64,000 bases of DNA from an uncultured Clostridia bacterium (GTDB lineage: Bacteria > Bacillota > Clostridia > Christensenellales > UBA1242): assembly GCA_947053595.1 (NCBI GenBank), contig CAMRSX010000007.1, positions 7,526-71,525 of the forward strand. The letters are read 5' to 3'. The notes beneath the pieces were generated by a model, which saw nothing but the letters and a program-made list of their open reading frames with translations, was not told the DNA's origin and did no database searches. Both the position numbers and the translations under genes were made by a program. Shown piece by piece: positions 10,686 through 62,317 of this stretch. Each line of letters opens with the position of its first letter. The stretch's first letter is position 1.

Positions 10686-10714
10686 TATTGAAACTCATTT
10701 TTTGGGAGGACATT

Positions 10715-23302: not shown

Positions 23303-23398
23303 TGGTTGCGAGGACAGGATTTGTCCCAGATTGCCCAGCCAATCGCCGACCCACAAAAGCTTTCCTGCCAAAGGGTCGAGCCTGTGACCTCCGGGTTA
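23303..23398 (-). pseudogene. tRNA-fMet 3'-half fragment interrupted by a 57-nt insert in the T loop
   Basis: 23303-23323 is identical to the last 21 nt of the real gene (TGGTTGCGAGGACAGGATTTG on the + strand). 23381-23398 (CCTGTGACCTCCGGGTTA) is identical to the T-stem/variable/anticodon-stem part. 57 nt with two hairpins lie between them. Confidence 0.6.
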
Positions 23399-23525
23399 GA
23401 CTCCGCTGCGCTTCGTGGCGTTCGCAAACGATGTTTGCTCGGCTTGAGCTCTCCGGCTCGCTACACCCGCCGGGCTGCATAACCCTAAAATAAAAAAAAA
23501 CTGCATCCTTTGATACAGTCTTTTT

Positions 23526-23602
<77 letters not shown>

Positions 23603-38100: not shown

Positions 38101-41100
38101 TTCACCTTCAAGTTGCTGCTTATGCCGCCAAGCAAGTTGACATCAATGACATCCAACTTGTCTTCCGCAAAAGCAACCTCAATGCTGCCCAGTTTTGTGG
38201 AAAGCATGCCCGAATTGTTGAACAAACTGATGCTTAACTTTTCGAAGTTTCCAGAAAACTGCAGCACAAGTTTGTCAAAACAGTCAGAAAGGGTGTAATT
38301 TTCTGCAATGTCCAAAAGCTGATTGAACACACCAAAATCAACCACAAAACCAAACCTTCCAGAAGTGAGGTTGTTGATGGTTTCAAACACATCCACTTGC
38401 TTGCCCGAAGAAGAGATGTTTGTTTTGATTTTCATGTTGCCATAAGCAACATACACCAACCCTTCATGCACGCGCACGCTGAACTTTTCGCCGCACACAT
38501 TGTTGCAAGAAATTTCAATTTCGCCGTTGTAATATTTAAACTTTCCAACTTCAGTTTGCTTGTCAATCACATTCCAGCCGTTGTAAGCAAAAGTGAAATC
38601 AAATTCAAACACTCCCGCTTTAACATAGTCCACAAGATTTTTGATTTTTGGAAGCAGCAAAAGCGCATCTTGCGCATCTTCAGGAAGCTTCTCTTGCAAA
38701 ATTTGCTGTTCGTCAAGCAGCATCACTTGAATGCGCAGTTTGTCAGAAATCACATAGTTAAACTGCAACTTTTGTCCGTCCACCGAAAGCAAGTTGCCTT
38801 CAAGTGCAAAAACCTTCAAGATGTCCACCGCATTCAAGTCAAGCGTTTTCAAAAGGCTTAAGAACGCATTTTTGTCAAACTGCGAGGAAGGAATTTCCAG
38901 ATTAAACACTTGCAAAATTTCCTCAAACAGTTGTTTTGCATTGCAAAGGTCTGCCTTCAAGAAAAGTTCGCCCAGCTGGAAACAAACAACATTGTCCCAA
39001 ACAATCAACTGCACATCTTCGCCAAACAGCACGGTTTTTGCAGAGAAATAAATTTTGTCAGTGAGTTCCAACTGAATGTCAAAAGTCAGTTCCAGTGTTT
39101 TTGTCAAGCCATCTTCCACATATCCAACTTCCATTTTGGCTGTGCCAGAGTGCGCGGATGTGAGGTTGTAATATTCTTGTTCACTTTCCGCTTCCATTTC
39201 AAAATTAACAATTTCAGCAACCAGTGTTGCGCTGTTTTGCAGTGTCAACATAAAGCCATGCAACACGTCTTCTTCAAACAGCACTTCCACGTTTGCAGAC
39301 ATAGGATTTTGAGTGTTAAACAAAATGTCCACACCCAAGCCAAACATGTTTGCATAAAGCGCATAGCTGCTGTTTCTTATGTTCACAGAAAGTTTTTCCA
39401 AAAGCTGCAAAGCGGAAAGATTTGAAACATCTTCTCCAAAAATTTTGTCAAGCAGCCATCTTATCGCGTCAAGTTGTTCCACTTCTTGCAAGCTTTCATC
39501 CTCAGCGCCTTCTTGCAAAGCTTCAGCTTTAAAGCCAAAGTTGTCTGCCGCCACTGCCAAGATGATTTCAGAAAGCTGGCTGGCTTTGTCTGCCTCAAGC
39601 TTAAGTTTTCTGCCACCATAGTTCACAAAAAGCCAACCATTTTGGCATCTGATTTGCAACTGATTTCCGCCAATCTTGCAAACATCAATTTCAAAGATGT
39701 TTTGCGTTAAATCAATTTTGACTGTTCCAGAAAGAGAGATGTTGTTAAATTCAAAGCCAAAGTTAAAAGCATATTGCTTGCCTTCAAAATAAGTTTTTGC
39801 GCTTTCAACTTTGTTAAGCACGCTTTCAAAACTTTGCGTTGCCTGTGGCAAAACCACAACATCGTTGCAAGAGTGCAAAGTGAAATTCAACAAGCCATTT
39901 GCCAGCTGCGCATCCACCTTCAATGTGTTGTTTTCCACAGAAAGTTTTGCAACTTCGGCAACGCCGTCTTCCATAAGCATCTTAACCACTGCCAGAGAAT
40001 CTTTGCCCCCAACAAGTTCAACCTTGTCAAAGACATCTTTCACAAATGCCATAACGCACTCTGCATTCAAAGCGCCAAAAGAACCCACTTCCAAATCAAA
40101 CAGCTCTTGAATTCTTTTTGCATAGCTTTCCATTTCGCTCAGCTTGCCTGCCACAACCAGCTCTCCAAGCGCAAGCAGAATGTCAGCATCTGCTTTGCCT
40201 TCTGTGTCCGCAAAATTGTGATTGACAAAAATCTGCAAGTTTTCTTTCAAAGCAGTTGTGTAAAGCCCAACGCGCACTTCGCGTTCGTTGAAATTCACCA
40301 CATAATCAAAAGCCAGTTCTTGATTTTCTTGTGTGGAAAAGACAACTTTTCCGCCAAACTTTTTGGTTGTCAAAACTTCATCCAAAACGGAAGTTAGTGG
40401 CAAAAGGCTAATCAAATCATAGAAATTCTCTTCAACCACAATTCCGTCATCAGATGGCGCAAAAGCAAGCAAAACCTTCACATCATCACAGCTCACCAAA
40501 ACGCTTTCCAGCATTTCGTCTTGTTGCTTCAGCACAATGCAAAGCTCTTCACCTTCCAAATCAGCCACATCCCAGCGCATTGTGAAATCATTGCCTTGCA
40601 AAAGCGTGGAAGAAGGAAGATATGCCTTCAAAGAAACTTCCGAAGAAACCCCGGAAAGAAGACTTTTCAAAATTTGCTTGCCATCCAAATCAATGTTGGC
40701 ATAGCGCGCAATAATCTCTTTCACAATTTCAGCCACAGTTTTGTTTGTGTGTTTTTCAACAATCTGGTCAATTTCACTTGCCCACTTTTTGCAGTCTTCC
40801 ACCAAAAGCTTAAGTTTAAGATTCCCCGCCTGCAAATATATGGTTTCATCACAATATGTCAGCGCAATTTCAAGCCCAGCATAATCAGTTTCAAAGCGCA
40901 CCTTGATGGAGTCTTCAAAATCAAACAGCACTTTTCCGCAAAGCGAAAGGGTCTCTTTGTTTGCCATTGGCACTTGCAAAGCAATGTCCGCGCTCACAAA
41001 TTTATTGTTTGTAAACAGTTTTTGAGCATATCCCGCATAAAGCGCAATGCCACTGAGGTCAATTTCCTCTCCGCTTGGGATGTAAGAAACTTCAACCTCG

Positions 41101-42002
41101 CTTTTTTCGCCCGTCATAACTTGCGTGTCGTTCATTCTGTTGACATTGGCATGGAAGGACAATGCGTTGTTTTCAATCAAAACATCATTCACCGTTCGTG
41201 CGCAAACAATGTTATAATTTTGGTCACAGACAATTTGAGCATAAACAAGGCTGCCCAACCTGATTCTCACATCATAGCCCGTTCTCACACCAAAGTTCTG
41301 GAAATATTTTTCATCATCTTCAAAAGGCTTAGATTCCGAAGTGTCCAGCTTGGCCGCCAGCGACTGAATGTCAATGTTTTCAAGGTCTTCAATGCCAATT
41401 GCTTTGGCAATGTCGTCCACAAAACTCAAATCAATGTCCAAAGCTTGGGCAACAAAACCCAAAATTTGCATCACGCCAACACTTTGCTTTGCTTCTTCTT
41501 CAGCTGCCTCTTTGGTTTTGCCTTGCTTCAGCGCGGCCTCTTCGTTTTTTGAATAACCAATGCCAGCAACAGATGTGATGTCAAACTTATATGTGTTTCC
41601 CTCAATGCTTAAAAACACATTTGGCACAACATAGGTTGCCAGCACATCATATGTTTTTTGATTATAGCCAAGTTTCAAATCCAGCAAAATCCCGCTTTGG
41701 TCATAAATCACCTTGCCATCCAACGAAAGGCTAACCTTCTTTTGTGCGTCAGTGAAGTTAAGTGCAATTTGCGCATCAATGTTTTGCAAGGACATCATGT
41801 TGATGACAAAGTCACCAAAAATGTTTTCTTCGCCAGCGGCTGCATCTTGATTTGGCGTTTCCGGAATTTGTGGAGATAGGTGTCCAACATATTCAATATA
41901 GCCAAAGAAAGCAAACAGCGTCACAAAGATGTAAACGGTGAAAACTCTAAACAATTTTGGGAAAAGTGTGTTTGGTTTTTTGATATGTCTTTCTTCCATC
42001 AC
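35166..42002 (-). CDS. giant hypothetical membrane-anchored protein (2278 aa)
   Basis: Uninterrupted ORF with an N-terminal anchor FRVFTVYIFVTLFAFFGYI. The rest is acidic, N/D/L/V-rich and beta-like with no recognisable motif. The start overlaps the stop of 41999-43042 (ATGA). Confidence 0.75.
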   Translation of the reverse strand: MMEERHIKKPNTLFPKLFRVFTVYIFVTLFAFFGYIEYVGHLSPQIPETPNQDAAAGEENIFGDFVINMMSLQNIDAQIALNFTDAQKKVSLSLDGKVIYDQSGILLDLKLGYNQKTYDVLATYVVPNVFLSIEGNTYKFDITSVAGIGYSKNEEAALKQGKTKEAAEEEAKQSVGVMQILGFVAQALDIDLSFVDDIAKAIGIEDLENIDIQSLAAKLDTSESKPFEDDEKYFQNFGVRTGYDVRIRLGSLVYAQIVCDQNYNIVCARTVNDVLIENNALSFHANVNRMNDTQVMTGEKSEVEVSYIPSGEEIDLSGIALYAGYAQKLFTNNKFVSADIALQVPMANKETLSLCGKVLFDFEDSIKVRFETDYAGLEIALTYCDETIYLQAGNLKLKLLVEDCKKWASEIDQIVEKHTNKTVAEIVKEIIARYANIDLDGKQILKSLLSGVSSEVSLKAYLPSSTLLQGNDFTMRWDVADLEGEELCIVLKQQDEMLESVLVSCDDVKVLLAFAPSDDGIVVEENFYDLISLLPLTSVLDEVLTTKKFGGKVVFSTQENQELAFDYVVNFNEREVRVGLYTTALKENLQIFVNHNFADTEGKADADILLALGELVVAGKLSEMESYAKRIQELFDLEVGSFGALNAECVMAFVKDVFDKVELVGGKDSLAVVKMLMEDGVAEVAKLSVENNTLKVDAQLANGLLNFTLHSCNDVVVLPQATQSFESVLNKVESAKTYFEGKQYAFNFGFEFNNISLSGTVKIDLTQNIFEIDVCKIGGNQLQIRCQNGWLFVNYGGRKLKLEADKASQLSEIILAVAADNFGFKAEALQEGAEDESLQEVEQLDAIRWLLDKIFGEDVSNLSALQLLEKLSVNIRNSSYALYANMFGLGVDILFNTQNPMSANVEVLFEEDVLHGFMLTLQNSATLVAEIVNFEMEAESEQEYYNLTSAHSGTAKMEVGYVEDGLTKTLELTFDIQLELTDKIYFSAKTVLFGEDVQLIVWDNVVCFQLGELFLKADLCNAKQLFEEILQVFNLEIPSSQFDKNAFLSLLKTLDLNAVDILKVFALEGNLLSVDGQKLQFNYVISDKLRIQVMLLDEQQILQEKLPEDAQDALLLLPKIKNLVDYVKAGVFEFDFTFAYNGWNVIDKQTEVGKFKYYNGEIEISCNNVCGEKFSVRVHEGLVYVAYGNMKIKTNISSSGKQVDVFETINNLTSGRFGFVVDFGVFNQLLDIAENYTLSDCFDKLVLQFSGNFEKLSISLFNNSGMLSTKLGSIEVAFAEDKLDVIDVNLLGGISSNLKVNHVQNSTISQFDAEEFEDYSQNIIDGMIDSLQVQEDVYAFTSDIAVRYSTTTFYGKLTVMVVKNTDKATGSVSYTPAVLLHTTSLGLSTYVYIIENNLYIDINGLQLVADLSQNTIQEVMDFVNNNLGQLLKTDKNAQVTLAKAGQDFANTAAVLDTTMQMFKVLLPALDRIYGSWLENGLQICLGNFVERNQIVSHKQVADEATGEMKTVEVFSNNIEDFGGEANVLKYGENSWFYNIFAQLLIENYKNTILPTKLVIGANIHDANTVLYENYEEYKLADEESSTLNRNLAIYLSNINVGEFVMGLDRTFFSDVAGFKQISAVASNMSEVSEVKTWISAEDGLEVSQNVTKLEDFTSYKTLLDATKAVLEYALLEDEEDGYAYKVALDGSISNKTTSHTTKIAGDVALQLKDLPKDENGNPILSESGLDLFEGKQLNVQGSFGIKTGTTPDASDVEHLIDLLYQSNGYGLYFTYTHSNYADDTDKGDENGTNNIGSNYFRAKLSNSNMTDIISLIVGATGMKLGDKLSGGLRLYETLTDFSFIRKLLGADEGADIGDTISKVDGLLSSAENITKMIKQISLLQTEEEIALMLKLDVAANDAQNAGKDIATIKLIVRGTMTDEGMKYSLSKLVIENLVMQDNVINFTISFNQFTSETEFDYDTSVQHFDFNNLPKFTDTAVNTANQKNFNFQGTVGVDIINSIKFKIALDLLASISDEGELQLYAQLDIKYEGWLSFAVGLLLDKTYDTRTVVLEYKDGALGMKAFNYTTEGLFSKWTKVEKVVDKTYHSGEISTSINQIIQDIMGLNKTGMETIDKIIASINAHPTIERVLLDFNELLDDNLAPVGYKMKVSGSNLMGTTATDMDVVLGTVSAQGKHLTSANQLVDKNYGFIDSLATSVKIMDAVTLDIDIHSVEGESYTTKAGAVVTSKGGTPGEAFGGKLIFTNGHFRAAYMQSYIDKYDAYLNSLQEQFEVLAA

Positions 42003-45902: not shown

Positions 45903-48890
45903 TTACAAATCTCTTCCCTCGTCCTTATTGCCATAAACAACGCCTTCCATCACTGTCTTGCTTTCAGATTTAACTGTTGTATAACCCTCAAAGTCACCAA
46001 ACAATGCAGCCGCAACAACATAATTTGATTTTGTAACCGAGCCTGTGTTGTTTTTCACGTTAACTTCGTCACTTACCGCGCCAAAACCACCGCTCGTTTT
46101 TGTTCCTGCAAATGTGAATGTGACAGTTGCGTTTTTGCCGCTTTTTTCCACTTCAGCAAAAATTTTCATATCATCATTAAACCCATACTTCTTTGCAAAC
46201 TCTTTTTTAATTGCATTGATATTGTCTTCAGAAATTGAATTTTCAGGCAAGTTTTTCAAAGCAGTTTCAAGGTTTTGCCCTTTAATGCCACAACTTGCTT
46301 GCTCCATGTGCATGTCAACAGTGGAAGCGTTCACGCCAAGAGGTTTTCCATTCCAATCAATGTCAGCCAGCTCAATTGTGTAAAGGTTGCCATTTGCAAA
46401 TGCATAAATAACCTTTTCTCCCTCAGTGTAAACAAGATTGGTGTTGTCTGTTGCCACATTTTGTGCAGAATTGTTGATGTCGTTCTTCTTGATGAAGTCA
46501 ACAATTTTTTGTTCCCACATGGAATTATCTTTAACAACATCATTCACATTGTTCACTGTCATGTCTGGTCCAATGGTTGTTGTGGTGTATTCGTTTGCAG
46601 CAAGCGCAAGCATAAACTCATCACCAAGCCCATTTTCTGCGTCAAGCACAATTGCATTGTTGTTGACATCCAAAATCTGGTTGTTTGAATTTGTTTTAAG
46701 AGTGAAATTGTAAATTGTTTCTTCGCCTGTTGCTTTCAATGTTTTGTTTTCCAAAGCAAGTTCAAGGTCTTCCTCTGTTTTTGCCACAGCCTGAACAGCT
46801 GCCAAAACATCGTCTTTAAGCAAATTGTCATTAAGTGCTGCACCAAATTCATCCAAAGTGAAATAAACAGCCTTTTCTTCCTTAACTGGAGTTTTTGCAG
46901 CGCCAACAACAACGCTCCAAACTGATGTGACATCTTCTTTAATAACACTGCCATTTTTGTCCACAAAAGCGCCAGCATCATTTTTTGTGAGTGGCAAAAT
47001 CCAGCTTAAATCTTCTGAAACTTTTGCAGTTATGCTTGCTTCTCCATCAATGTCTGCAGCAGAAAGTGAAACAAAGTCATTTTTCTCGCCAGTTTTTTCT
47101 TTAATTGCATTTGCCCATTCAGTTTCATTTTTGTTCAAAGATTTGGAAATAAAACCAATGTCAATGTTTTTTGCTTCAACAGGTGCTTTGTGAAGTGGAG
47201 AATTTTCGTTATCCAAAGCTTCTTTCATATATGAATTTTCATAAATAGTTGTATAATCTTCTGCCTGCTCTGCAGTCATGCCTTGCGCCACCAAATCCTC
47301 AATGTTTTTCTCTCTTGCTGTTTTTCCATCTCTTGCAGAATTTTCAAAACCCCAAGGATAAACAATCACAAGTTTGCCATCTTTAACAAAAGACTTTCCA
47401 TCTTTGTCAACTTCAATCAGCTCTTGCATAACCGCTTGCCCAAGAGGAGCAGCTTCTTCTTCAATTCTAACTTCGCTTGCCCCAAAATTGGTTGCTGCAG
47501 TCCAGTCACCCTGTCTCCAACGTCCACGCAAAGCATTGTTTGTGTAAGGTTCAGGCATTTGAAAAACATAATCTCCGCCAACTGGAATGTTGTTTTCATA
47601 TTTCAACAAAGAATCGTCTTCTTTATAATTGTTGACAACCTTCTTTGCTTCTGCTCTTCCATATTCTTTTGCATCATCAGTGCGGTCAACATATGTCAAA
47701 GCAGCTCCAGTATGTCCAACAACAATCAGCCCTGCAACAACAGCAGATGCAATTGTAAAAGCTTTTTTATGTTCTTTGACAAAAGCTTTAACTGATTTAT
47801 TTGAAGACAAAACTTCATCTTCTTCTGTCACTTCTTCTGCGGCTGGTTGTTCTTCTTGTTCTGCAATAGTTTCAACAACTGGCTCAGTTTTTTCATTTGC
47901 TTTATTCAAAGCATCAAAGTCCTCTTCGGCCAATTTAAGAGCATATTTATACTCTTCACTATCTTCGCCTCCAATTTCGTCAATCATTTTGCGCTCAGCT
48001 TCATCAAACTTAATTTTTGCTGCTTCCCATGATTCATCATTCATATCTTTTCCTGCAACTTTGAGACAATCAACCTCAGCTGAAACAAATTCCTCAAAAA
48101 TGCTGGCTTTGGCTTTCAATTCATCAAGCTCTTCTTTTTTAAGACCTGACAATCTTTCAGCAATAGAATTAGACGTTTCTTCTCCGCCTTCAACACCAAG
48201 GTTCTCATTTGTTTTTTTGATACTTCTTGAATATTTAACATAATCAATAATACCCACAGACTCAACATCTTCAGAGACTGGTCCTTGCAGTGCCTCTTCC
48301 TCAACCGGTTCCTCCGATGTCAATTCTGTTTCTGATTCAGCGTTAAGAGCATCAGCGTCAACATATTTGCCTGAATAAACGGCACTGTGTTCTGCTGTCT
48401 CTTCTGAAATTGGTGTTTCAACAGGTTTTTCAGTTTCTTCTTCAAAAGCAGGTTCTTCCAGCTCTGCATCAAACTCTGGGTCTTCTGCATATTCTTCTGT
48501 ATTTTCAGCAACAGACTCGCCTTCAGCCATTGTTCCTGCAATAAGTGCATCTTCTCCCATCACTTCTTCTGCGGCTGGTTGTCCTGCAACAGCTTCATCA
48601 TCTTCCTTCACAAGAATGGAGTCGAGCATATTTTTATAGTCAGAAGCATTTTCTCTGTCATAAACATACCTTTCAATTTTAAAACCATCTTCAATAACAG
48701 ACACATTGTTCACTTTGCGAGGTCTTTGTTTTTCGTCTTTAATCCAAACACCATAGAGAGAACTGCCGTTAAACTGAGCCTCCTTGTCTTCAACAATATA
48801 TACAACAGCCTTTTTGTTGTTCATAACAACTGCTTTTGCTTTTCCATCCACAACAAGTTGTTGCAAAGTCTGAAGTTGATTCATTTTCAT
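45903..48890 (-). CDS. large hypothetical bitopic membrane protein (995 aa)
   Basis: GGAGGTG RBS. ~380-aa acidic N-terminal part, one TM (FTIASAVVAGLIVVGHTGAALTYV), and a ~590-aa C-terminal part. No motif recognised. Confidence 0.7.
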   Translation of the reverse strand: MKMNQLQTLQQLVVDGKAKAVVMNNKKAVVYIVEDKEAQFNGSSLYGVWIKDEKQRPRKVNNVSVIEDGFKIERYVYDRENASDYKNMLDSILVKEDDEAVAGQPAAEEVMGEDALIAGTMAEGESVAENTEEYAEDPEFDAELEEPAFEEETEKPVETPISEETAEHSAVYSGKYVDADALNAESETELTSEEPVEEEALQGPVSEDVESVGIIDYVKYSRSIKKTNENLGVEGGEETSNSIAERLSGLKKEELDELKAKASIFEEFVSAEVDCLKVAGKDMNDESWEAAKIKFDEAERKMIDEIGGEDSEEYKYALKLAEEDFDALNKANEKTEPVVETIAEQEEQPAAEEVTEEDEVLSSNKSVKAFVKEHKKAFTIASAVVAGLIVVGHTGAALTYVDRTDDAKEYGRAEAKKVVNNYKEDDSLLKYENNIPVGGDYVFQMPEPYTNNALRGRWRQGDWTAATNFGASEVRIEEEAAPLGQAVMQELIEVDKDGKSFVKDGKLVIVYPWGFENSARDGKTAREKNIEDLVAQGMTAEQAEDYTTIYENSYMKEALDNENSPLHKAPVEAKNIDIGFISKSLNKNETEWANAIKEKTGEKNDFVSLSAADIDGEASITAKVSEDLSWILPLTKNDAGAFVDKNGSVIKEDVTSVWSVVVGAAKTPVKEEKAVYFTLDEFGAALNDNLLKDDVLAAVQAVAKTEEDLELALENKTLKATGEETIYNFTLKTNSNNQILDVNNNAIVLDAENGLGDEFMLALAANEYTTTTIGPDMTVNNVNDVVKDNSMWEQKIVDFIKKNDINNSAQNVATDNTNLVYTEGEKVIYAFANGNLYTIELADIDWNGKPLGVNASTVDMHMEQASCGIKGQNLETALKNLPENSISEDNINAIKKEFAKKYGFNDDMKIFAEVEKSGKNATVTFTFAGTKTSGGFGAVSDEVNVKNNTGSVTKSNYVVAAALFGDFEGYTTVKSESKTVMEGVVYGNKDEGRDL

Positions 48891-53713: not shown

Positions 53714-54523
53714 TCAGCAACAGCTTGCGTTGTTGAAGGTTTTCCAAGCAGTGTTTTGATATTTTGCAAAGTTGTTTATTGTCACCTCGTTTGGGGATAT
53801 TTTGCCCAAATCTTCCCACAAAATTGGCATGGAGATGGGGGCGTGCGCCCTTGCCCTGACAGAATATGGTGCAACGCAGGTTGCACCTTTTTTATTGCGC
53901 AAAAAATCCACAAAAACTTTGCCCTTGCGGCGCTCTTTTCTTATGTTGGTTGTAAAAATTTGCGGCCACTTCTGCTGAGCAACCATGGCAATTTGTTTGG
54001 AAATCTCTTCAAACTGTTGCCAATTTTTGCTGGGCAGCTTGGCAACCACATGATAGCCCTTCCCTCCGCTTGTTTTTAAAAACGAATCAATTTCCAGCTC
54101 GTCCAAAATGAATTTAATTTTCAAAACCGCTTCCCGCAAGACCTTAAGTGGCATGGCGGTGTCGGGGTCTAAATCAAACACCATGACATCCGGTTTGTTT
54201 ATTGCATCAACGCTGCTTGCCCAAGTGTGAAACTCCACAGTGCCAAGCTGCACTTGATTGACAAGCTCTTGTGCGGTTTTGATGTAAAAATATTCATGCT
54301 GTTCCACCTTCTTCACATGCACCAAGTTGTCCGAATTTGGATGCTTTTTAAAAAAGACATTTGCGTCCACATTGTCGTGGCAGCGAATGACGCTTAAAAG
54401 CCTGTTTTCCACATATGGCAGCATGAGAGGTGCAACACTGATGTAATAGTTCATCAAATCCAGCTTTGTTATGCCGTCTTTCACAAACAAAACCTTTTCT
54501 GGACTGGTGATTTTAATTTCCAT
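53714..54523 (-). CDS. ligD: LigD polymerase/primase domain protein (NHEJ)
   Basis: ITSPEKVLF..GITKLDLMNYY..APLMLPYVENRLLSV.R, VFDLDP and KTSGGKGYHV motifs. Overlaps the upstream ligase ORF by 11 nt. Confidence 0.8.
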   Translation of the reverse strand: MEIKITSPEKVLFVKDGITKLDLMNYYISVAPLMLPYVENRLLSVIRCHDNVDANVFFKKHPNSDNLVHVKKVEQHEYFYIKTAQELVNQVQLGTVEFHTWASSVDAINKPDVMVFDLDPDTAMPLKVLREAVLKIKFILDELEIDSFLKTSGGKGYHVVAKLPSKNWQQFEEISKQIAMVAQQKWPQIFTTNIRKERRKGKVFVDFLRNKKGATCVAPYSVRARAHAPISMPILWEDLGKISPNEVTINNFAKYQNTAWKTFNNASCC

Positions 54524-56081
54524 TTTCTTTCTCCAATTTCACGCTTTTTGCCGCCTTGTCTGTTCTTAAGCCCACAAAAACTGGCTGGCGCAGCACATCA
54601 TCTTTTGTCAGCTGAGCAAACTTGATTTGTGCCACCAGCTGCGGCACAAGCCATGTGACATTTGAAAGCTTTGGACGGCTGGCAAATGGGCAGGTTTTGC
54701 TTTGAAGTTTTTCAAATTTTTTGCGCAACTGCTCTTTTGTTTTTTCATCAAAACCTGTGCCAACCTTGCCCACAAACACCAAAGCGTCATCACGATAATA
54801 TCCCAGCACAAGTGCACTTAAGACCTCATTTTTCTCGCTGGTTGTGAAGCCAGCAACAACAAACTCTTGCATGTTTGCACACTTGATTTTAAGCCAATCC
54901 TCATTCCGCTTGCCAAGATATAAGGAAGTTGCTTTTTTTGCCACAATGCCTTCCAACTGATTTTTGCAGGCAAACTCAAAGCTTTCTTTGCCGTCTTTCA
55001 CATGTTGCGAATAAATTAAATTTGCTTGGCAATCAAACAAAAGCCGCTCCAACTTTTGTTTGCGCACCTCCAGCGGCAAAAGGCGCAAATCCTCACCATT
55101 TTGTGCAAGCAAGTCAAAAATTACATAAAAGAAATTGTTTTGTTTTTGCTTGATTGCCGTCTGCAGTCTTCCAAAATCCGAGCGTCCCAATTCATCAAAA
55201 ACCACAACTTCGCCGTCCACAACAAAGGAAGTCTGGTCAATTTGCTGCAGCGCTTTTGCAATGCTTTCAAACTTGGCGGAATAGTTTTGCCCGTTTCTTG
55301 AAAGCAGTTTAACCTTGCCATCTTCTTTAAATGCAAGCATGCGGAAGCCGTCATATTTAATTTCAAAAATCCAGTCCTTGCCAGTTGGAATTTTGTTAGT
55401 CAGCGCGCAAAGTTGGCAATTTGCTGTCAAAAATGGCAGTTTTGTTTGCTTTTTATCATCTTTTTTGGCAAACTCGTCACTTATTTTCATGATAAACCAG
55501 TTGCTGTCTTTTGTTTTGATAAGCTGCCATGCGCCTTTCAGCTTGTCTCCATTCAGCACAAATTTCAGATGCCCATGCTTTAAACCATCTTCAAAATTTT
55601 TGATTGGAAGATATGTCCCCTTATCAAAAATCTCCACAGTGCCGGCGCCATAGTTTCCCTTTGGGATGATTCCTTCAAAAGTTATATAATCAACTGGATG
55701 GTCTTCCACCATCACAGCCAAGCGCTTTGTTTTGGGGTTTGTGGACAGCCCCTTTGGCACCGCCCAACTTAAAAGCACGCCGCCATATTCCAAGCGAAAA
55801 TCAAAATGCTTTGCGCGTGCCTCATGATATTGAATGACAAATCTCTTCTCTTCCTGCTTTTCTTTCAAATTTTTGGAAGTTTTGTCACCAGCTTTGTTTT
55901 TGTCTTGCTTAAGGTTTTTGTTTGCCGCTTTGTTGACAAAACTGTCAGCATTTTCCTCTTTGCTGGCGGCTGTGCTCGCGCTTTGTTTGCTGTTGGTTTT
56001 GGCTGCCGTTTTGGAAGTTTTGCCGCTGGGCTCGGTTGTGGAAGCAAAGTTGCGCTTTTGTTGATATTTTTTCAAGCTCAT
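54513..56081 (-). CDS. ligD: LigD 3'-phosphoesterase + ATP-dependent DNA ligase domains (NHEJ)
   Basis: PE domain: YQQKRNF..TTEPSG, FVIQYHEARAKHFDFRLE, SWAVPKG. Ligase domain: the adenylation motif EIKYDGFR. A K/A/S-rich low-complexity insert lies near the N-terminus. Confidence 0.85.
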   Translation of the reverse strand: MSLKKYQQKRNFASTTEPSGKTSKTAAKTNSKQSASTAASKEENADSFVNKAANKNLKQDKNKAGDKTSKNLKEKQEEKRFVIQYHEARAKHFDFRLEYGGVLLSWAVPKGLSTNPKTKRLAVMVEDHPVDYITFEGIIPKGNYGAGTVEIFDKGTYLPIKNFEDGLKHGHLKFVLNGDKLKGAWQLIKTKDSNWFIMKISDEFAKKDDKKQTKLPFLTANCQLCALTNKIPTGKDWIFEIKYDGFRMLAFKEDGKVKLLSRNGQNYSAKFESIAKALQQIDQTSFVVDGEVVVFDELGRSDFGRLQTAIKQKQNNFFYVIFDLLAQNGEDLRLLPLEVRKQKLERLLFDCQANLIYSQHVKDGKESFEFACKNQLEGIVAKKATSLYLGKRNEDWLKIKCANMQEFVVAGFTTSEKNEVLSALVLGYYRDDALVFVGKVGTGFDEKTKEQLRKKFEKLQSKTCPFASRPKLSNVTWLVPQLVAQIKFAQLTKDDVLRQPVFVGLRTDKAAKSVKLEKENGN

Positions 56082-56083
56082 GT

Positions 56084-56848
56084 TTATGCCCTCTTTTTGC
56101 TTTCCAAGCTTTTCTTTAGGGCATCCATAAGGTTGATAACCTTAACTGGTGCTTTCTCTTCCTTCGCCTCCACCACCTCGTTGCCAGAAATCTTTTGCTT
56201 TATTGCTTTTTGCAGGCGAATGTAATATTCATCCCGATATTTTTCTGGCTCAAACTTTCCCGTCATCTGACCAATCAGCGACTTTGCCAAGTCCACCTCT
56301 TGCTTTGTGGTTTTGGGTTTTTCCAAAGTGGCCGGCGGCTGAATTTCGTTTGCAAAATAGAGGGTGTTTACAAGCATATGTCCATGATTGACATGAAGCA
56401 ATATCAAGGTTTCTTTGGTGCCCAGCACTGTTTTTGCAATGCCCGCCTTGTTGGCACTTTCCATGGCCTTCAACAGCACATGAAACGCCTTGTCTGCACC
56501 TTGCGGTTTGACATAATATGCGCGGTCAAAAAAGATTGGGTCCACCTCTTTCAAATCCACAAACTTCTCAATGGTTATATTTTTGTCTTTGGAAGTTTTA
56601 AGTTTTTCAAAATCCTCCTCAGTAAAGATGACATATTTGTCCTTTTCATATTGATAGCCCTTGACAATGTCCTCGTTTTTGATTTCCTTATCTTCACAAT
56701 CCACGCAGGTTTTCTTATATCTCACCCTTGATTTTGTCTTTTTTTCCAACATATTGAAGCCAATGTCTTGCTCTTTAACACACTGCGACAGCGTTATTGG
56801 AATAAAAACCAGTCCAAAGCTGATTGCGCCCTTATACGAATATGCCAT
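56084..56848 (-). CDS. ku: Ku DNA end-binding protein
   Basis: YKGAISFGLVFIPITL, DIVKGYQYEKDKYV, FDRAYYV. ATG 56848 is better spaced from GAAGGAGA than ATG 56854. Confidence 0.9.
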   Translation of the reverse strand: MAYSYKGAISFGLVFIPITLSQCVKEQDIGFNMLEKKTKSRVRYKKTCVDCEDKEIKNEDIVKGYQYEKDKYVIFTEEDFEKLKTSKDKNITIEKFVDLKEVDPIFFDRAYYVKPQGADKAFHVLLKAMESANKAGIAKTVLGTKETLILLHVNHGHMLVNTLYFANEIQPPATLEKPKTTKQEVDLAKSLIGQMTGKFEPEKYRDEYYIRLQKAIKQKISGNEVVEAKEEKAPVKVINLMDALKKSLESKKRA

Positions 56849-57048
56849 ATCCATTCTCCTTCAACATATTTTGCACAAAAAACGCATGTTTTATGTCCAG
56901 CGCTTTAACTTATGGCAGCTTTTGGGAACCTTTTTATATGTTTGTTTCTTGCAGTCTTGCAACAAAACTTCAGCCAAACACACTTGGGGCAGCTTTCCCA
57001 TATAATGTTATTGATTACGAAAAGTAATCAAAATTACAGGAGATGAAA

Positions 57049-59028: not shown

Positions 59029-60048
59029 ATGACAAAAAAGAAAAAAATTTACACAACCATCTTTGCAGCCCTTGGCATTCTTGCCATTGTTAGCGGAGTG
59101 TTGGCGCTTTGTTTATGTCTGCCAAAAAAGCAAACTCCACCCACTCCCCCTCCAGCAGACACCAACATGAGCACAGCCACAGCACAGCAACTTGTCAACA
59201 ATATTTGTGTGGATTTGGGCATTTTGTCCAAACAGAGCAACGAAGATGAAGCCACTCAAGCAAGTGCAACTGCACTGGATGAATATTTGCAAGACATTGA
59301 AGAGGACGAAAATGTTGACCTTCCTTCCGTCATCAACTCTGCTGATATGGTGTATTGCTTGGCATTTTCAAAAGGCATTGTGGACAACATCCACGCTGAA
59401 GACACTTATTATTTAAGCAGTGTTGCAAGCGGAAAAGTTACACTTTCAAACGGCAGCACACAAATTTTGCCAAACAACCTATTTTTCAGTTATGGCATCA
59501 AAAACAACACGCTCACCATCAACGCAATTGTTGCCTCAGCTTCAGAAAACAACGCATATTTTGTCCGCCTTGAAATGACCCACATCTCCTCAACCTCTTG
59601 GGAACTGAACTTTTTGAAATACAACACCCCAAGTGAATGGGATGGAAAAGAAACTTATTCTTCTTCCATGGCTGTTGGAAATGTCATCTTTTGTCAGGCA
59701 AAGGCAGCAAATCACAAACTGACAGAAGTGGAAGTTTCAAAAATCACGGCAGCAGAAGGCGCAGTTGAAAAAACCGGAAACCAAATCAACAGCACCGAGA
59801 AGGTGGGCATTGAAATGACATATCTCAACACAACAACAAACAAAAAAATTTTCAACCTAAGAGGTGGCGCTGGCATCCCAGAAAACAAGCCTCAAACCCT
59901 TTCAGACAAAGATGCACTTGCCAAAATCAACAGTATATATGTCAAAGTTGCGGCAAGCACAACCCCTGCCTTCAAAGAGATGAAAACAAAGTCTTCAAAC
60001 ATCCTTCAAAATGCAATTTCCGTTTATGTTGACTATTTTTCAAAATAA
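59029..60048 (+). CDS. hypothetical membrane-anchored protein (339 aa)
   Basis: AGGAGAA RBS. N-terminal anchor IYTTIFAALGILAIVSGVLALCLCL followed by a PPTPPPAD linker. No motif recognised. Confidence 0.6.
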   Translation: MTKKKKIYTTIFAALGILAIVSGVLALCLCLPKKQTPPTPPPADTNMSTATAQQLVNNICVDLGILSKQSNEDEATQASATALDEYLQDIEEDENVDLPSVINSADMVYCLAFSKGIVDNIHAEDTYYLSSVASGKVTLSNGSTQILPNNLFFSYGIKNNTLTINAIVASASENNAYFVRLEMTHISSTSWELNFLKYNTPSEWDGKETYSSSMAVGNVIFCQAKAANHKLTEVEVSKITAAEGAVEKTGNQINSTEKVGIEMTYLNTTTNKKIFNLRGGAGIPENKPQTLSDKDALAKINSIYVKVAASTTPAFKEMKTKSSNILQNAISVYVDYFSK

Positions 60049-60147
60049 AAAAAGAGAGCAAGGGCTATAAATTTTGAAACTAGCAAAATAAAAAGGACAG
60101 TTAATCAAAAATAATAAACTGTCTTTTTGTATTCCATTGGATTTTAA

Positions 60148-60573
60148 CTAATCTTGATGTCCATTTATTATTCCATCTATCAATTTGCAAAACTTTTTAT
60201 TTCTATATAATTTTGTATTTTCATAAACTTTTCTTAAACATGGATTTCTAAACAACCCGACCCAATCTTTTTCATATTTCTTCCATGATGGCAACATAGA
60301 TTCCATGTGGTTAAGAAATAAGACCAAAAACCTATATTGCTTTTCACTCATCTTATCTGCTTTAATTGGACATTCTCCAGTGCCATTATTATTACTCAAA
60401 ATTCCAGCTAATTCTGGCTCATTCATGTAATATAACCATAGTTCTCTGTGAGATAATATCGCCGCCTTTCTTCTATCTATTTTGATTTTAAATAAAATAG
60501 TTACACTCACTAAAATAATTGAGATTAAAATCATTGCTAAAAATGTTATTAACAGAATTTCAAAAGTTGTCAT
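60148..60573 (-). CDS. hypothetical membrane-anchored protein (141 aa) in a visibly more AT-rich island
   Basis: AAGGAGAG RBS and N-terminal TM ILLITFLAMILISIILVSVTILF. Composition is clearly more AT-rich than the flanks (by eye). Confidence 0.55.
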   Translation of the reverse strand: MTTFEILLITFLAMILISIILVSVTILFKIKIDRRKAAILSHRELWLYYMNEPELAGILSNNNGTGECPIKADKMSEKQYRFLVLFLNHMESMLPSWKKYEKDWVGLFRNPCLRKVYENTKLYRNKKFCKLIDGIINGHQD

Positions 60574-60657
60574 CTTTTCTCTCCTTATACTTTTGTATTA
60601 TAACATACTCTTGTTAAAAATGCATCATTTTTTATAAAAAATTCATTTTGGGATTCT

Positions 60658-60714
60658 GGCGTGTGCTTGTCTTATACGAGCGCCTTCGCTTCGCTCGGCA
60701 GACAGGCACACGCC
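60658..60714. repeat. 57-nt compound palindrome
   Basis: Outer arms GGCGTGTGCTTGTCT (60658-60672) and AGACAGGCACACGCC (60700-60714). Inner stem CGAGCG (60677-60682) / CGCTCG (60692-60697). Confidence 0.6.
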
Positions 60715-61107
60715 TTTAATTAACTTTGTTGCAAAAGAGCGGTTGCTGGCGGAGCATAACGCAATTCGCTCTTTTGTTTTTTGTTTTCCTCTCTCTATTT
60801 TCTAGTGTAAGCGAGTATTCTTTGTTGTCAAGGTTAAAGTGCATGTCTAAGTCTTCTCAAGTGAATTATTCACACGACAACCTATGACAACGGCAGAATT
60901 ATTCGCTTTTTGGGCAGTTAATAGAGAGCAAGGGAAAAAAGGAAACATAGGCCTGTTTTGGTCTATGTTTTTCTTTGTTTTTCTGCTAGTTTCAAAATTG
61001 AGTGACTAAAATCTTGCTCTTTTTTTTCATGCTTTGAATGCAAGCATATCTTTGATTGCATGCTTTCAGCTTGTTGGCTTTACTGCAATGCCTGAAGTTT
61101 GAAGCAA

Positions 61108-61497
61108 TTAAAAAGCATAATCGTTTTTATACAAGCCCAGCGAATAATATTCCGCAACCAGACGAATCACTTCTGCTGTGGTTGGCTTGTGCTCGGCCTT
61201 CAAAACTTCCATGCCATACAGCTTGTTGATGAAGCCAAATCCCTTGGTTTTGTATGTAAAAGCAATGGCGTTGTGCATATTCGCTTCCACCCTAAAAAAG
61301 TCTTTTGCCCCACACTTTTCGGCAACAATGGTAAACAAGCGCCTAAGGTCGTGGATAAGCTCGGGGTTGACAATAACCTCCTTCACCGATTGCGTCAAAA
61401 ATGTAAACCCCACATGGTCACACTTAATTCCAATCCTTATTAGTGTCAGTTTGACAACCTTTTCAATTTCCTTTTCGGTTTCGACAATGTTTTCCAT
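61108..61497 (-). CDS. stand-alone Spo0A C-terminal (effector/DNA-binding) domain protein, no receiver domain (129 aa)
   Basis: IRIGIKCDHVGFTFLTQSV...LFTIVAEKCG...RVEANMHNAIAFTY...INKLYG...HKPTTAEVIRLVAEYY aligns by eye with B. subtilis Spo0A [20 protein letters not shown]...LYPDIAKKFN..RVERAIRHAIEVAW..SSLFG..AKPTNSEFIAMVADKL. GGAGG RBS before ATG 61497. Confidence 0.7.
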   Translation of the reverse strand: MENIVETEKEIEKVVKLTLIRIGIKCDHVGFTFLTQSVKEVIVNPELIHDLRRLFTIVAEKCGAKDFFRVEANMHNAIAFTYKTKGFGFINKLYGMEVLKAEHKPTTAEVIRLVAEYYSLGLYKNDYAF

Positions 61498-61740
61498 ATT
61501 TTGCAACCTCCAATCCATAAGTTCCGCACAAAGCGTCATATTTGGACATAGTTTAACACAAAAAAACAAAAATGCAAAATAATTTTTCAATATTTTACAA
61601 ATTAATTTGAAAAATTTTGTAATTCTAACTCAGTCAACAATAAAAAATGTTCCCAAAACATCGTTATAAGACATATTTTCATAATTTCTAACCCGCCCTC
61701 CTTAATCCGCAATTTTTACAAAAAGAATTAAACAAAGCGC

Positions 61741-62172
61741 CCACCCGTTCAAATCCCACTCCTCAGTCTGCGGTTTTTGAATTAAACAAATCAAAAAAAG
61801 CACAGGCCTTTTCTTTTGGCGGAAACGGTGGGATTCGCTCCGCGGTCTGCCCGTCACAGATGGCTCTTGCCGCTTTCACGCCGGGGTGGGATAACGCAGC
61901 ACTGCTGCCTTTTCTTTTCCACCCGTTCGAATCCCACTCCTCAGTCTACAGTTTTTCAGTTAAACAAATTAAAAAAAGCACAGGCCTTTTCTTTTGGCGG
62001 AAACGGTGGGATTCGCTCCGCGGTCTGCCCGTCACAGATGGCTCTTGCCGCTTTCACGCCGGGGTGGGATAACGCAGCACTGCTGCCTTTTCTTTTCCAC
62101 CCGTTCGAATCCCACTCCTCAGTCTACAGTTTTTCAGTTAAACAAATTAAAAAAAGCACAGGCCTTTTCTTT
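61741..62172 (-). repeat. tandem array: two perfect 178-bp units plus a diverged partial unit, each starting with the 3'-terminal 21 nt of tRNA-Ser(CGA)
   Basis: Units 61817-61994 and 61995-62172 look identical. The partial copy is 61741-61816. The unit start TGGCGGAAACGGTGGGATTCG equals the first 21 nt (+ strand) of the adjacent tRNA gene. Confidence 0.85.
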
Positions 62173-62263
62173 TGGCGGAAACGGTGGGATTCGAACCCAC
62201 GTGCCAGTTCCCTGACAACCGCATTTCGAGTGCGGCTCGGTGCGACCTCTTCGATACGTTTCC
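62173..62263 (-). tRNA. tRNA-Ser (CGA)
   Basis: GGAAACGTATCGAAGAGGTCGCACCGAGCCGCACTCGAAATGCGGTTGTCAGGGAACTGGCACGTGGGTTCGAATCCCACCGTTTCCGCCA. Type II, 3-bp D stem, long variable arm. Confidence 0.9.
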
Positions 62264-62288
62264 ATATTTTCCTGCGCTTTTCGTTGAT

Positions 62289-62317
62289 ATGATATCACTT
62301 TTCTTGTCTTTTTGCAA
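62289..62317 (-). promoter_or_regulatory. tRNA-Ser promoter
   Basis: Minus strand: TTGCAA, 17 nt (ending GTGA), TATCAT. Confidence 0.5.

Follow-up and report, generated by a model that had tools for sequence, protein, structure and literature searches.

The displaced tRNA 3' fragments that mark tyrosine-integrase islands and prophages, as attL/attR direct repeats, have been defined by Islander (PMC4383910). The locus described here, behind a tRNA-Ser(CGA) gene of an uncultured Clostridia bacterium, resembles such islands in its intact tRNA, its insert and its direct 21-nt copy of the T-loop-to-CCA segment, and it resembles real prophage junctions (such as L091) in that the insert supplies the terminator of the regenerated tRNA. 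It deviates from tRNA islands in that the insert is ~157 nt long, lacks integrase and cargo, is tandemly repeated and contains an inverted copy of the T arm, and in that the sequence after the tRNA is homologous to the host-side flank. Williams is said to have described, in 2002, a T-loop "sublocation" class of such sites.

CIMEs, the att-flanked remnants of ICEs and IMEs, lack recombination genes and can accrete in tandem (PMC5704250, PMC7563491). The units described here are likewise att-bounded in layout, carry no recombination or transfer genes and stand in tandem at one tRNA, such that mobilisation in trans is conceivable; unlike CIMEs, they measure no more than 158-178 bp, and searches of phages, plasmids and IMG/VR contigs returned no related element. 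To our knowledge, the CIMEs on record are far larger, and their descent from an ICE or IME resident in the same host is plain to see. Phage mv4, whose Int targets the 3' end of tRNA-Ser(CGA), has a complete attP of 215-234 bp with 17 bp of attP-attB identity (bioRxiv 10.1101/2023.11.06.565760). Here the target gene and region are the same and the attP is similar in size to our unit, whereas the window holds no integrase and no similarity to phage records, and the mv4 attP has not been described with an inverted T-arm copy. [quoted passage not shown] A homologue of our insert on another contig (L098) resembles an attP beside an element-borne tRNA (10 nt shared, 45 nt away), but both it and the window are chromosomal, with no nearby phage genes or integrase and no disrupted host tRNA seen.

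Other parallels concern the folding portion of the insert, which we call element E. Folded single-strand attachment sites are used by CTX phage (attP(+)), by other Xer-exploiting elements and by integrons (attC). In a likeness drawn from the sequence alone, the inverted half-sites of E could similarly fold to the target duplex, without an integrase of their own and in tandem arrays, although the stem is only 10 bp and there is no dif-like or attC R-box (GTTRRRY) motif. Trailer-derived sRNAs, stable fragments released from a transcript shared with the tRNA, form a further comparison. The Xanthomonas sRNA sX4 (RF02223) overlaps tRNA-Ser(CGA), and its consensus joins a tRNA-Ser(CGA)-like core to a 3' extension that base-pairs with the T stem's 3' strand; its scores at our loci are, however, far below threshold and mostly driven by the tRNA, and strong terminators part the tRNA from the insert at two of the loci (L098 and L024). 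Finally, E is like a MITE in its length (110-132 bp), its perfect 10-bp terminal inverted repeats, its conserved subterminal sequence, its variable interior and the existence of truncated copies (window positions 61741-61759 and L095). It is unlike a MITE in that all three full or near-full copies (3/3) lie at the same position relative to tRNA-Ser, that neither the rest of the 64-kb window nor the 1.5 Mb of loci retrieved for comparison contains a dispersed copy, and that a target-site duplication is lacking in the window, since the flanks of E are CTGAGGA and CGTTTCC.

Results

The window, by which we mean the whole 64-kb stretch of DNA that was analysed, carries the following features, of which all but the promoter and the tRNA gene form the array.

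62289-62317, minus strand: sigma-70-like promoter of tRNA-Ser(CGA), TTGCAA, 17 nt, TG-n-TATCAT (consensus scan)
62173-62263, minus strand: complete tRNA-Ser(CGA) gene, CCA encoded (ARAGORN; Rfam tRNA, 52.5 bits)
61995-62172, minus strand: unit 1, tRNA-proximal, 178 bp (identity to unit 2; TRF period 178)
61817-61994, minus strand: unit 2, 178 bp (178/178 bases equal to unit 1)
61741-61816, minus strand: terminal partial copy A', 76 bp, diverged, comprising terminator, spacer and the first 19 nt of E
62149-62172, 61971-61994 and 61793-61816: weak bidirectional terminator-like hairpin, AAAGAAAAGGCCTGTGCTTTTTTT in the tRNA sense, directly after CCA (RNAfold of the unit)
61995-62015 and 61817-61837, minus strand: displaced 3' fragment of tRNA-Ser(CGA), its last 21 nt (C56-A76), CGAATCCCACCGTTTCCGCCA
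62006-62115 and 61828-61937: element E, 110 nt, multi-hairpin, with a closing 10-bp stem GTGGGATTCG/CGAATCCCAC
62103-62115 and 61925-61937: inverted copy of the T loop and 3' T-stem strand of the locus's own tRNA, 13 nt, GTTCGAATCCCAC on the plus strand
62074-62086 and 61896-61908: internal hairpin GCAGC-ACT-GCTGC of E
62054-62067 and 61876-61889: middle motif of E, TCACGCCGGGGTGG, common to L098 as TCACGCCTGTGTGG
62162-62173, 61984-61995 and 61806-61817, with 62085-62096 and 61907-61918: 12-nt direct repeat GCCTTTTCTTTT (AAAAGAAAAGGC in the tRNA sense)

An initial annotation had reported two identical units, a diverged partial third copy and their position against the tRNA gene, and this outline holds at every point in the assembled sequence: all 178 bases of the two units agree, the partial copy departs from the last 76 nt of a unit at six positions (61751, 61770, 61772, 61779, 61781 and 61792), and ARAGORN and Rfam both place the tRNA where the array abuts it. 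TRF delimits the array at 61741-62193 (period 178, 2.5 copies, 97% matches), and similarity to the units is lost abruptly to the left of 61741. In the tRNA sense, each unit runs from terminator through spacer and element E to the 21-nt tRNA 3' fragment. As had also been annotated, every unit read on the plus strand begins with this tRNA piece and then diverges from the gene: TGGCGGAAACGGTGGGATTCG is found at 61817, 61995 and 62173, and is followed by CTCCGCGG in the units and by AACCCACG in the tRNA gene. The displaced blocks stand in direct orientation relative to the gene end (62173-62193), begin with CGAAT inside the T loop (the T arm reads GTGGG-TTCGAAT-CCCAC) and end with CCA. Between the tRNA end and the displaced fragment lies a gene-free insert of ~157 nt, and the sequence after the tRNA (A) is 92% identical to that after the last fragment (A'). 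The 12-nt repeat occurs five times in the 64-kb window, every time inside the array, with one copy after each tRNA end or fragment and one in each E. What had been called an A-rich tail is indeed part of each unit, and is the weak terminator hairpin of the tRNA itself, read on the opposite strand.

The absence of integrase and cargo was upheld for the window. Specifically, no integrase, excisionase or transposase was found by Pfam among the 34 larger open reading frames scanned, 24 of which matched families, all of housekeeping type, while 10 had no match. The only long reading frame of the insert (158 aa, 61816-62292) has no Pfam match, and a protein-coding reading of the array was rejected on that ground and on the unit length, 178 not being divisible by 3. 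The neighbourhood is chromosomal, with gyrase and aminoacyl-tRNA synthetase genes, and the genome encodes Ku and LigD. We also rejected a decayed tandem tRNA copy, as the unit body aligns with the tRNA no better than shuffles do (local alignment z of -1.5/-1.1 in the window, 0.6/0.3 in L098 and 0.5 for the L024 sense strand). The body being unlike the rest of the tRNA, the earlier description of the units as tRNA-derived applies to the 21-nt block and the 13-nt inverted piece, and not to the body. Elsewhere in the window, a copy of the C56-A76 segment of a tRNA-fMet lies 202 nt downstream of that gene; the insert between them contains a direct and an inverted copy of the same tRNA's anticodon arm and resembles the tRNA 5' two-thirds (alignment z 11.6).

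Both ends of E (GTGGGATTCGAAC and CGGAGCGAATCCCAC) are inverted copies of the tRNA T loop and T stem, forming perfect 10-bp terminal inverted repeats that enclose 90 nt (half-sites ~90-110 nt apart), and the closing stem, read from the sequence, equals the tRNA gene duplex at C56-C65. The inverted T-arm copy had been annotated before; its presence is confirmed, with a length of 13 nt rather than 10. An inverted-repeat search returned a third copy at 61747-61759 (12/13 matches), and a 28-mer around the inverted T arm was observed three times against 0.00 expected, hence not by chance. The GCAGC-ACT-GCTGC hairpin, previously recorded with one position, is present in both units, and is terminator-like on the plus strand because CTTTTCTTTT comes next. 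The fold z-score of the window E is -4.4 on the minus strand and -3.9 on the plus strand, with 0/200 shuffles equally stable, and the range across the window and L098 is -3.9 to -5.0. A consensus scan found no promoter-like site ahead of E on either strand. The attC R''/R' core (RYYYAAC/GTTRRRY) is absent from E, GTTCGAA being a misfit to GTTRRRY, and no dif-like 28-mer was seen on reading the sequence. A hammerhead or other ribozyme was considered and rejected: although CUGAGGA stands ahead of E in the window, the stem is not followed by GAAA, the CUGAGGA motif is missing from L098, and Rfam ribozyme matches were nil.

A single-copy homologue of E lies at 122-253 of L098, an unrelated metagenome contig of 34% G+C, behind another tRNA-Ser(CGA). 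Between the two sequences the ends of E are conserved (19/19 and 15/15 nt), as is the middle motif, while the remaining body differs, a pattern that would be expected of binding sites. A hairpin stands at the position equivalent to GCAGC-ACT-GCTGC with a different sequence, and the inverted repeat comprises 14 nt at 93%. Across these two independent E sequences the closing stem does not vary, and the inner hairpins are set apart by indels, not by paired substitutions. In L098, E sits 45 nt from the complete tRNA, behind a strong terminator (17-nt perfect arms and a T run), and sharing with the T arm is limited to the 10 nt of CGAATCCCAC, two copies of which lie 188 bp apart. Given that it ends in CGAATCCCAC without the acceptor and CCA part, this E is no simple displaced tRNA fragment. 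The context is chromosomal (trpB, nadE), and neither tRNA-Ser nor E was found by synteny at any of the trpB-related loci (0/11).

An independent array, made of 2.2 units of 158 bp, lies behind tRNA-Ser(GGA) in L024, from another Clostridia MAG of gut origin. A unit there consists of a terminator, an inverted copy of the T arm (GGGATTCGAACCCTC), a body of 86 nt and the last 16 nt of the tRNA; both tRNA-derived pieces match the GAGGG/CCCTC T arm of that locus's own tRNA. The insert lies behind a strong terminator (14-nt perfect arms and a T run), and the array, like that of the window, terminates in a diverged extra terminator copy. The units show no significant structure (fold z -1.5 and -1.9), and the closing stem is missing from them. 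In a related contig, L115, the ferredoxin neighbour is 98% identical and there is one unit against two in L024, with both counts taken from short-read assemblies, which are able to collapse repeats; this difference is the only dynamic signal observed. A further contig, L116, starts ~20 nt beyond the last tRNA-fragment copy, within the diverged terminal terminator. No tRNA-Ser was found beside the L024-type ferredoxin in relatives L117 and L118 (77-80% identity).

The distal junction of the window array has independent support from an ENA contig of another sample, L099, which is collinear with window positions 60688-61890 at 95% identity and takes in the terminal partial copy and, beyond it, the 21-nt fragment with 53 nt of the adjoining unit body. 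Over 61500-61890 the two differ at three positions only, all within A', and at each of these L099 has the base of the full units, in what looks like gene conversion between repeat copies. It is extremely improbable that the window array is an assembly artefact in which a single unit was mis-assembled as two. The two units are admittedly 100% identical and the window is probably a short-read MAG, all relatives being MAGs, but the junction of A', tRNA fragment and unit body exists in the L099 assembly, and a single unit would still leave the tRNA, the insert and the displaced fragment. Further, the two units of the L024 array differ at three positions, and that array is therefore no product of collapse or expansion in assembly.

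In L102, from a relative of the window organism whose tRNA is 92% identical, no insert follows the tRNA, which has the opposite orientation and different flanks; a related TTGCAAAAAG motif lies upstream of it, comparable to the window promoter. The orientation of the tRNA relative to a Spo0A_C-like gene is inverted between the window and L102, indicating that the locus has been rearranged. In the closest relatives, L001-L011 (49-78% identity), no tRNA-Ser adjoins the ABC transporter, and in the synteny comparison only L024 (37% identity) has a tRNA-Ser next to it. At L091 and L093, genuine prophage junctions occur at tRNA-Ser(CGA), and there too a terminator comes immediately behind the restored tRNA end. 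A 20-mer from the 5' end of E matched four loci in 241 million metagenome records, two of them related, and a 22-mer from the same end was absent from 185,579 reference genomes. The two unrelated matches were L096, a chance match at 66% G+C, and L097, which lies 7.4 kb from a tRNA-Ser(GGA), reads as a tRNA-Ser 3' end and is consistent with an ordinary displaced tRNA fragment.

The initial annotation had named a match to an integrative element elsewhere as the finding that would make this an ordinary att scar, and none emerged from the phage, plasmid and viral-contig collections: blastn against phage records matched only tRNA genes, three different queries had no match among plasmids and phages, and five unit- or E-derived patterns gave zero matches among IMG/VR viral contigs. 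Rfam over 60.5-63.5 kb of the window (E<=10) returned the tRNA and noise only (tmRNA_permuted, 14 bits), with no sX4 match at that cutoff. L098 and L024 gave the same picture, except that sX4 appeared below its threshold, scoring 26.6 and 25.7 bits, respectively, over tRNA and trailer against a gathering threshold of 70.

Discussion

The array is best explained as a DNA-level structure rather than a gene product. Specifically, the layout of the units, with an intact tRNA end, a short insert and a displaced C56-A76 copy, is what site-specific recombination leaves when it targets a tRNA gene between the T loop and CCA. Our preferred reading, which we hold tentatively and at a little under an even chance, is a cargo-less, att-bounded micro-insert, whether relic or non-autonomous, that was amplified by unequal recombination and homogenised by gene conversion. 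The insert would be the relic of an integrating element stripped to an attP-sized recombination region, or a non-autonomous micro-element of that size; its terminator serves the tRNA. A first insertion would have created two direct repeats of 97-116 bp (tRNA 3' end, terminator and E start); unequal homologous recombination between them could then gain or lose whole 178-bp units, and gene conversion would keep the copies alike. The inverted T-arm ends and conserved E motifs would be protein-binding recombination sites that mimic the tRNA target. The same architecture at the independent tRNA-Ser(GGA) locus, with ends that match its own tRNA, points in this direction, as does the repetition of the C56-A76 block downstream of the window tRNA-fMet. 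The genuine prophage junctions of L091 and L093 likewise supply the restored tRNA with a terminator, and mv4 has a complete attP of the same size order as the unit. Further support comes from the unit counts of L115 and L024, the L102 tRNA without an insert (in another orientation and flank), the conversion-like bases of L099, the conserved ends and middle motif of E, and a unit body that is no decayed tRNA.

Several observations count against this reading. There is no recombinase among the 34 reading frames and no parent element in the collections searched; folding of E on both strands is not needed by classical attP arms; we know of no characterised integrase with inverted core copies in its att arms; the E of L098 has no acceptor and CCA part behind it; and the one-versus-two unit difference comes from short-read assemblies. 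Moreover, A' includes the first 19 nt of E, which means that the supposed host flank already carried part of the element, and the A/A' homology fits local duplication equally well as integration.

A purely local duplication without any integrating element, in which E is an old chromosomal element behind tRNA-Ser(CGA), as in L098, is an unlikely but serious account. Slippage or unequal crossing-over between the CGAATCCCAC 10-mers of E and the tRNA, 178 bp apart, would produce the units, and a later rearrangement would have truncated the last E. The spacing of the two 10-mers is exactly one unit, L098 would represent the pre-duplication state, the E part kept in A' places E-like sequence in the flank beforehand, the locus has been rearranged relative to L102, Ku and LigD could support end-joining, and the anticodon-arm copies behind tRNA-fMet show a duplication-inversion pattern. 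Such a process, however, predicts a complete E and an unrelated flank at the array end, whereas the array here closes with a tRNA fragment and A', in which no more than 19 nt of E are retained. At L024, comparable terminal microhomology is absent (only CCC is shared), yet the layout and the diverged terminator end are the same; independent recurrence with T-arm boundaries points to a directed process, and duplication gives no account of E itself.

It is somewhat less likely again, though still a serious alternative, that E is a functional structured nucleic acid and the tandem units are extra copies of a gene or site. [quoted passage not shown] The stable folds of the window and L098, with no shuffle as stable, the conserved ends and junction motifs, the hairpins that hold equivalent places with different sequences, and the identity of the 10-bp stem to the C56-C65 duplex all favour it, as does the sX4 consensus, with its tRNA-Ser(CGA)-like core and 3' extension; the weakness of the hairpin behind the window tRNA would also permit read-through. 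Against this stand the strong terminators ahead of the insert in L098 and L024, which make a trailer RNA less likely, and the lack of a promoter-like site; sX4 scores of 25-27 bits are far from the gathering threshold and the window has no match; the L024 units are not significantly structured and have no closing stem; two independent sequences offer no covariation; the E 20-mer matched four metagenome loci, two of them related, and the 22-mer no reference genome; and neither a dif-like site nor an attC R-box is present. Among the three options raised initially, then, stacked att scars and a tandemly amplifying miniature element gain ground, through the C56-CCA block, the own-tRNA ends at L024, the one-versus-two unit counts, the gene-conversion-like exchange and the L102 tRNA without insert, while the trailer RNA is weakened by the terminators and by the missing promoter and Rfam family.

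A bolder proposal, which we consider improbable, is that the arrays belong to a hitherto undescribed class of gene-less micro-elements of ~160-180 bp tied to tRNA-Ser in gut Clostridia, each consisting of the tRNA terminator and a hairpin module with ends that copy both strands of the cognate T arm and so form a folded or duplex mimic of the target, and that a recombinase encoded elsewhere inserts them, excises them and amplifies them in tandem. Specificity would then lie in the T-arm-matched ends, which would vary together with the target tRNA, as is seen at the CGA and GGA loci.

If local duplication were instead correct, the array would be an ordinary neutral repeat, relevant mainly to assembly quality. 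Should our preferred reading of att-bounded micro-inserts hold, a recombination module would be able to persist, and even to amplify, free of genes, in a size class far below that of known cis-mobilizable elements. Island finders that depend on an integrase would miss such arrays, which also interrupt short-read assemblies at tRNA genes. The T-arm copy in inverted orientation, which matches the neighbouring tRNA in two unrelated loci, could reveal how a recombinase reads its tRNA target, or could mark a new structured element linked to tRNA-Ser.

A recurrent tandem array behind tRNA-Ser

Behind the tRNA-Ser(CGA) gene, the window carries a tandem array with the following parts.

62173-62263, minus strand: tRNA-Ser(CGA)
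61995-62172: unit 1, 178 bp, directly behind the CCA end
61817-61994: unit 2, 178 bp
61741-61816: partial terminal copy, 76 bp, 6 mismatches

The initial annotation had described two identical 178-bp units and a diverged partial third copy, and a base-by-base comparison bears this out: the two units agree at all 178 bases (copy number as assembled), the partial copy departs from them at 6 positions, and similarity to the units is lost abruptly to the left of 61741. As had also been claimed, a piece of the tRNA 3' end opens every unit when the + strand is read: TGGCGGAAACGGTGGGATTCG, the complement of C56-A76 (T loop to CCA), beyond which the sequence differs from that of the gene. The array is flanked by a Spo0A_C-domain gene (61108-61503, minus strand) on one side and a divergent ABC-transporter gene (start near 62413) on the other.

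A contig in ENA that derives from a different sample (L099; 95% identity over 1.2 kb) contains the partial copy at the array end as well as the 21-nt fragment and 53 nt of the unit body. Because this separate sample has the same distal junction, the junction is not specific to one assembly. Over 61500-61890, only three bases separate L099 from the window, all within the terminal partial copy and each matching the full-unit base, a pattern that gene conversion among the copies would be expected to produce.

The same architecture, in unlike sequence, lies behind tRNA-Ser(GGA) in another Clostridia MAG (L024), where the tRNA gene is again divergent from an ABC-transporter gene. Here, the array has 2.2 units of 158 bp. 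In each, a strong terminator precedes an inverted T-arm copy (GGGATTCGAACCCTC), which is followed by an 86-nt body and then by the last 16 nt of the tRNA; the array ends in an additional, diverged terminator copy. Both tRNA-derived pieces fit the T arm of their own tRNA (GAGGG/CCCTC), not that of the window tRNA. Where L024 has two units, a strain-level relative (L115) has one, as assembled from short reads, and a third contig, L116, starts ~20 nt beyond the last tRNA-fragment copy, within the diverged terminal terminator. Just upstream of tRNA-Ser(GGA), the tRNA promoter region (L024 9328-9383) holds degenerate copies (77-85%) resembling the tRNA 3' end and terminator start of the unit, as well as the terminator hairpin. 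The repeats may formerly have reached upstream of today's gene. The array is a real, reproducible, and recurrent feature, its structure, recurrence, and variability being directly visible in the loci compared, and it is highly improbable that an assembly artifact is its source.

Unit anatomy and related elements

Read in the tRNA sense, each unit runs from the CCA end through a bidirectional terminator hairpin, weak and rich in A/T, and then 33 nt of spacer to a hairpin-rich element, E, and ends with the 11 nt CGTTTCCGCCA.

62006-62115 and 61828-61937: E, 110 nt

The 21-nt tRNA fragment consists of the final 10 nt of E plus CGTTTCCGCCA. The 5' end of E, GTGGGATTCGAAC, is the exact reverse complement of the tRNA T-loop and 3' T-stem strand; the initial annotation had recognized this inverted piece, although its length is 13 nt rather than 10, and the hairpin it reported within the unit was found again. 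The 3' end of E is CGAATCCCAC, and the two termini are predicted to pair in a 10-bp closing stem enclosing three or four small hairpins. The fold of E is markedly more stable than that of shuffled sequences (z = -4.4 and -3.9 on the two strands; 0/200 shuffles equally stable), whereas the unit taken in full is unremarkable in this respect (z about -1.7). Each tRNA end or fragment is directly followed by one copy of the 12-mer AAAAGAAAAGGC, and each E contains another; the remainder of the 64 kb has none.

In a metagenome contig of 34% G+C (L098), tRNA-Ser(CGA) is followed by a strong terminator and a single E-like element of 132 nt. It shares with the window E the first 19 nt, the last 15 nt (CGGAGCGAATCCCAC), and the middle motif TCACGCC.G.GTGG; the remainder is dissimilar, including differently sequenced hairpins at equivalent places, and the acceptor/CCA part of the tRNA is absent after E. 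Positions 1-58 of L098 are the exact reverse complement of 565-622, just upstream of trpB, so that an inverted repeat brackets the tRNA-Ser(CGA) and E module. The segment may genuinely be invertible or mobile, or the repeat may stem from assembly, as 58 = k-1 for k=59, a value in the default k list of MEGAHIT. In L095, from the same metagenome, E is reduced to its first ~37 nt. This contig starts with a sequence resembling a tRNA 3' end plus a strong terminator (1-110), continues with two small genes on the minus strand, of 163 and 222 aa, and ends in the shortened E 5' end (1385-1432); it may represent a small island between tRNA-related sites. As an exact sequence, E is not widespread, given that the 22-mer at its 5' end has no occurrence in 185,579 reference genomes and the corresponding 20-mer matches four metagenome contigs, two of them related.

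Several identities were rejected. The array has neither an Rfam family nor Pfam support as a protein gene, and decay from a tRNA copy is rejected, since the unit body lacks similarity to the remaining tRNA. The phage, plasmid, and viral-contig collections searched held no match. Scores to Rfam sX4, a Xanthomonas sRNA family whose consensus combines a core resembling tRNA-Ser(CGA) with a 3' extension that pairs with the T-stem strand, were sub-threshold (25-27 bits; threshold 70) and came mostly from the tRNA part, with no match in the window; they are a lead only.

Genomic context

The closest relatives are uncultured Clostridia MAGs, several labeled Christensenella or Catabacter. In L102/L103, relatives of the window organism (identity 92% for the tRNA and about 71-73% for the Spo0A_C protein), the tRNA adjoins the same Spo0A_C gene in the opposite orientation, with nothing behind it (window 61108-62263 versus L102 9729-10399). 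A closer relative (L100; Spo0A_C protein 85% identical) has a short-chain dehydrogenase gene in the place of tRNA-Ser(CGA), and in L098 the tRNA lies beside trpB, a position from which it is absent in 11 trpB relatives. The tRNA-Ser(CGA) gene swaps neighborhoods unusually often. Downstream of tRNA-Ser, both L024 (7612-8358; GGA, array) and L102 (8910-9689; CGA, no array) carry an EFR1-type flavodoxin/4Fe-4S ferredoxin gene, which suggests an old linkage, lost in the window. Two stretches of very low G+C (25-31% versus 41% for the window) on either side of the Spo0A_C-domain gene (59900-60700 and 61400-61800) hold a 141-aa membrane-like ORF and adjoin a 339-aa ORF, neither with a Pfam family. 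Both ORFs are missing from L102 between its Spo0A_C gene and the tRNA-Lys/Gln cluster, and this region of the window may be an insertion.

The 24 scanned window ORFs with a Pfam match are ordinary chromosomal genes (among them RF1, PrmC, SSB, SecA, YchF, GlnRS, GyrB/GyrA, HisRS, MetRS, ComEC, HolA, and LigD plus Ku), and none of the 34 larger ORFs scanned against Pfam matched an integrase or transposase, in agreement with the initial annotation. Three ORFs are very large (10688-16960, 35166-42002, and 45903-48890; 2090, 2278, and 995 aa), the last without a matching Pfam family. At a distance of 5 kb from six clustered tRNA genes, the window encodes a complete bacterial end-joining set (53714-56854; LigD primase-polymerase, LigD phosphoesterase plus ligase, and Ku), which may bear on illegitimate joins of the kind seen in the truncated final E copy.

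A second tRNA gene, tRNA-fMet (23526-23602), which adjoins gyrB in the core chromosome, has its own C56-A76 copied 202 nt downstream, with one direct and one inverted copy of its anticodon arm in the intervening DNA.

23303-23525, minus strand: insert behind tRNA-fMet, 223 nt

This insert comprises a terminator, an inverted 18-nt anticodon-arm copy, a direct 35-nt copy (anticodon arm to T-stem), ~57 nt of unrelated sequence inserted precisely between T-loop positions 55 and 56, the last 21 nt (C56-A76) copied without mismatch, and a second terminator. It matched no Rfam family.

Origin of the array

The start of the repeated block in the T loop fits a class of integrase crossover positions reportedly recognized by Williams in 2002. 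At genuine prophage junctions in tRNA-Ser(CGA) (L091/L093), a terminator directly follows the regenerated tRNA end, as it does in the array unit. An intact tRNA end, a short insert, and a displaced tRNA copy from T loop to CCA form the pattern by which site-specific recombination into tRNA genes is recognized (PMC4383910), and the complete attP of mv4, a phage that targets tRNA-Ser(CGA), spans 215-234 bp (bioRxiv 10.1101/2023.11.06.565760), near the size of the 178-bp unit. On these grounds, we tentatively favor, at slightly less than even confidence, the view that each unit is an att-bounded micro-insert lacking cargo: all that is left of an integrating element, or else an attP-sized, non-autonomous element. 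We infer that a recombinase was involved, with the ends of E as putative binding sites. A single insert in place would create a locus with two direct repeats of 97-116 bp, between which unequal homologous recombination would gain or lose whole units, while gene conversion would homogenize the copies. Together, these processes would explain why units 1 and 2 are identical, why the terminal copy has diverged, why strains differ in unit number, and why the terminal copy of L099 is mosaic.

Several observations do not fit well with an att insert. The sequences following the regenerated tRNA end and the last fragment are 92% identical, and the last copy contains the first 19 nt of E; therefore, the flank already had E-like sequence. 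In L098, E occurs without an attached tRNA 3' fragment. E is strongly structured, and its inverted T-arm copy co-varies with the adjacent tRNA, for which we know of no precedent among characterized att sites. These same observations keep two other explanations alive. One, a local duplication at an ancestral tRNA-terminator-E locus by way of its 10-nt T-arm repeats, is rather unlikely; the other, a functional structured element, whether an RNA or a folded, single-stranded att site, is somewhat more doubtful still. Its trailer version, an RNA made as a 3' trailer of tRNA-Ser as the initial annotation suggested, is weakened by the strong terminators ahead of the insert in L098 and L024, the lack of an apparent promoter, and the absence of significant structure in the L024 units. 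With its inverted T-arm end, E is the one conserved component that the att reading leaves without explanation. Taking each unit as an att-bounded micro-insert, the array is best classed as a novel form, very small and gene-less, of the att-repeat structures left by integrating elements at tRNA genes.
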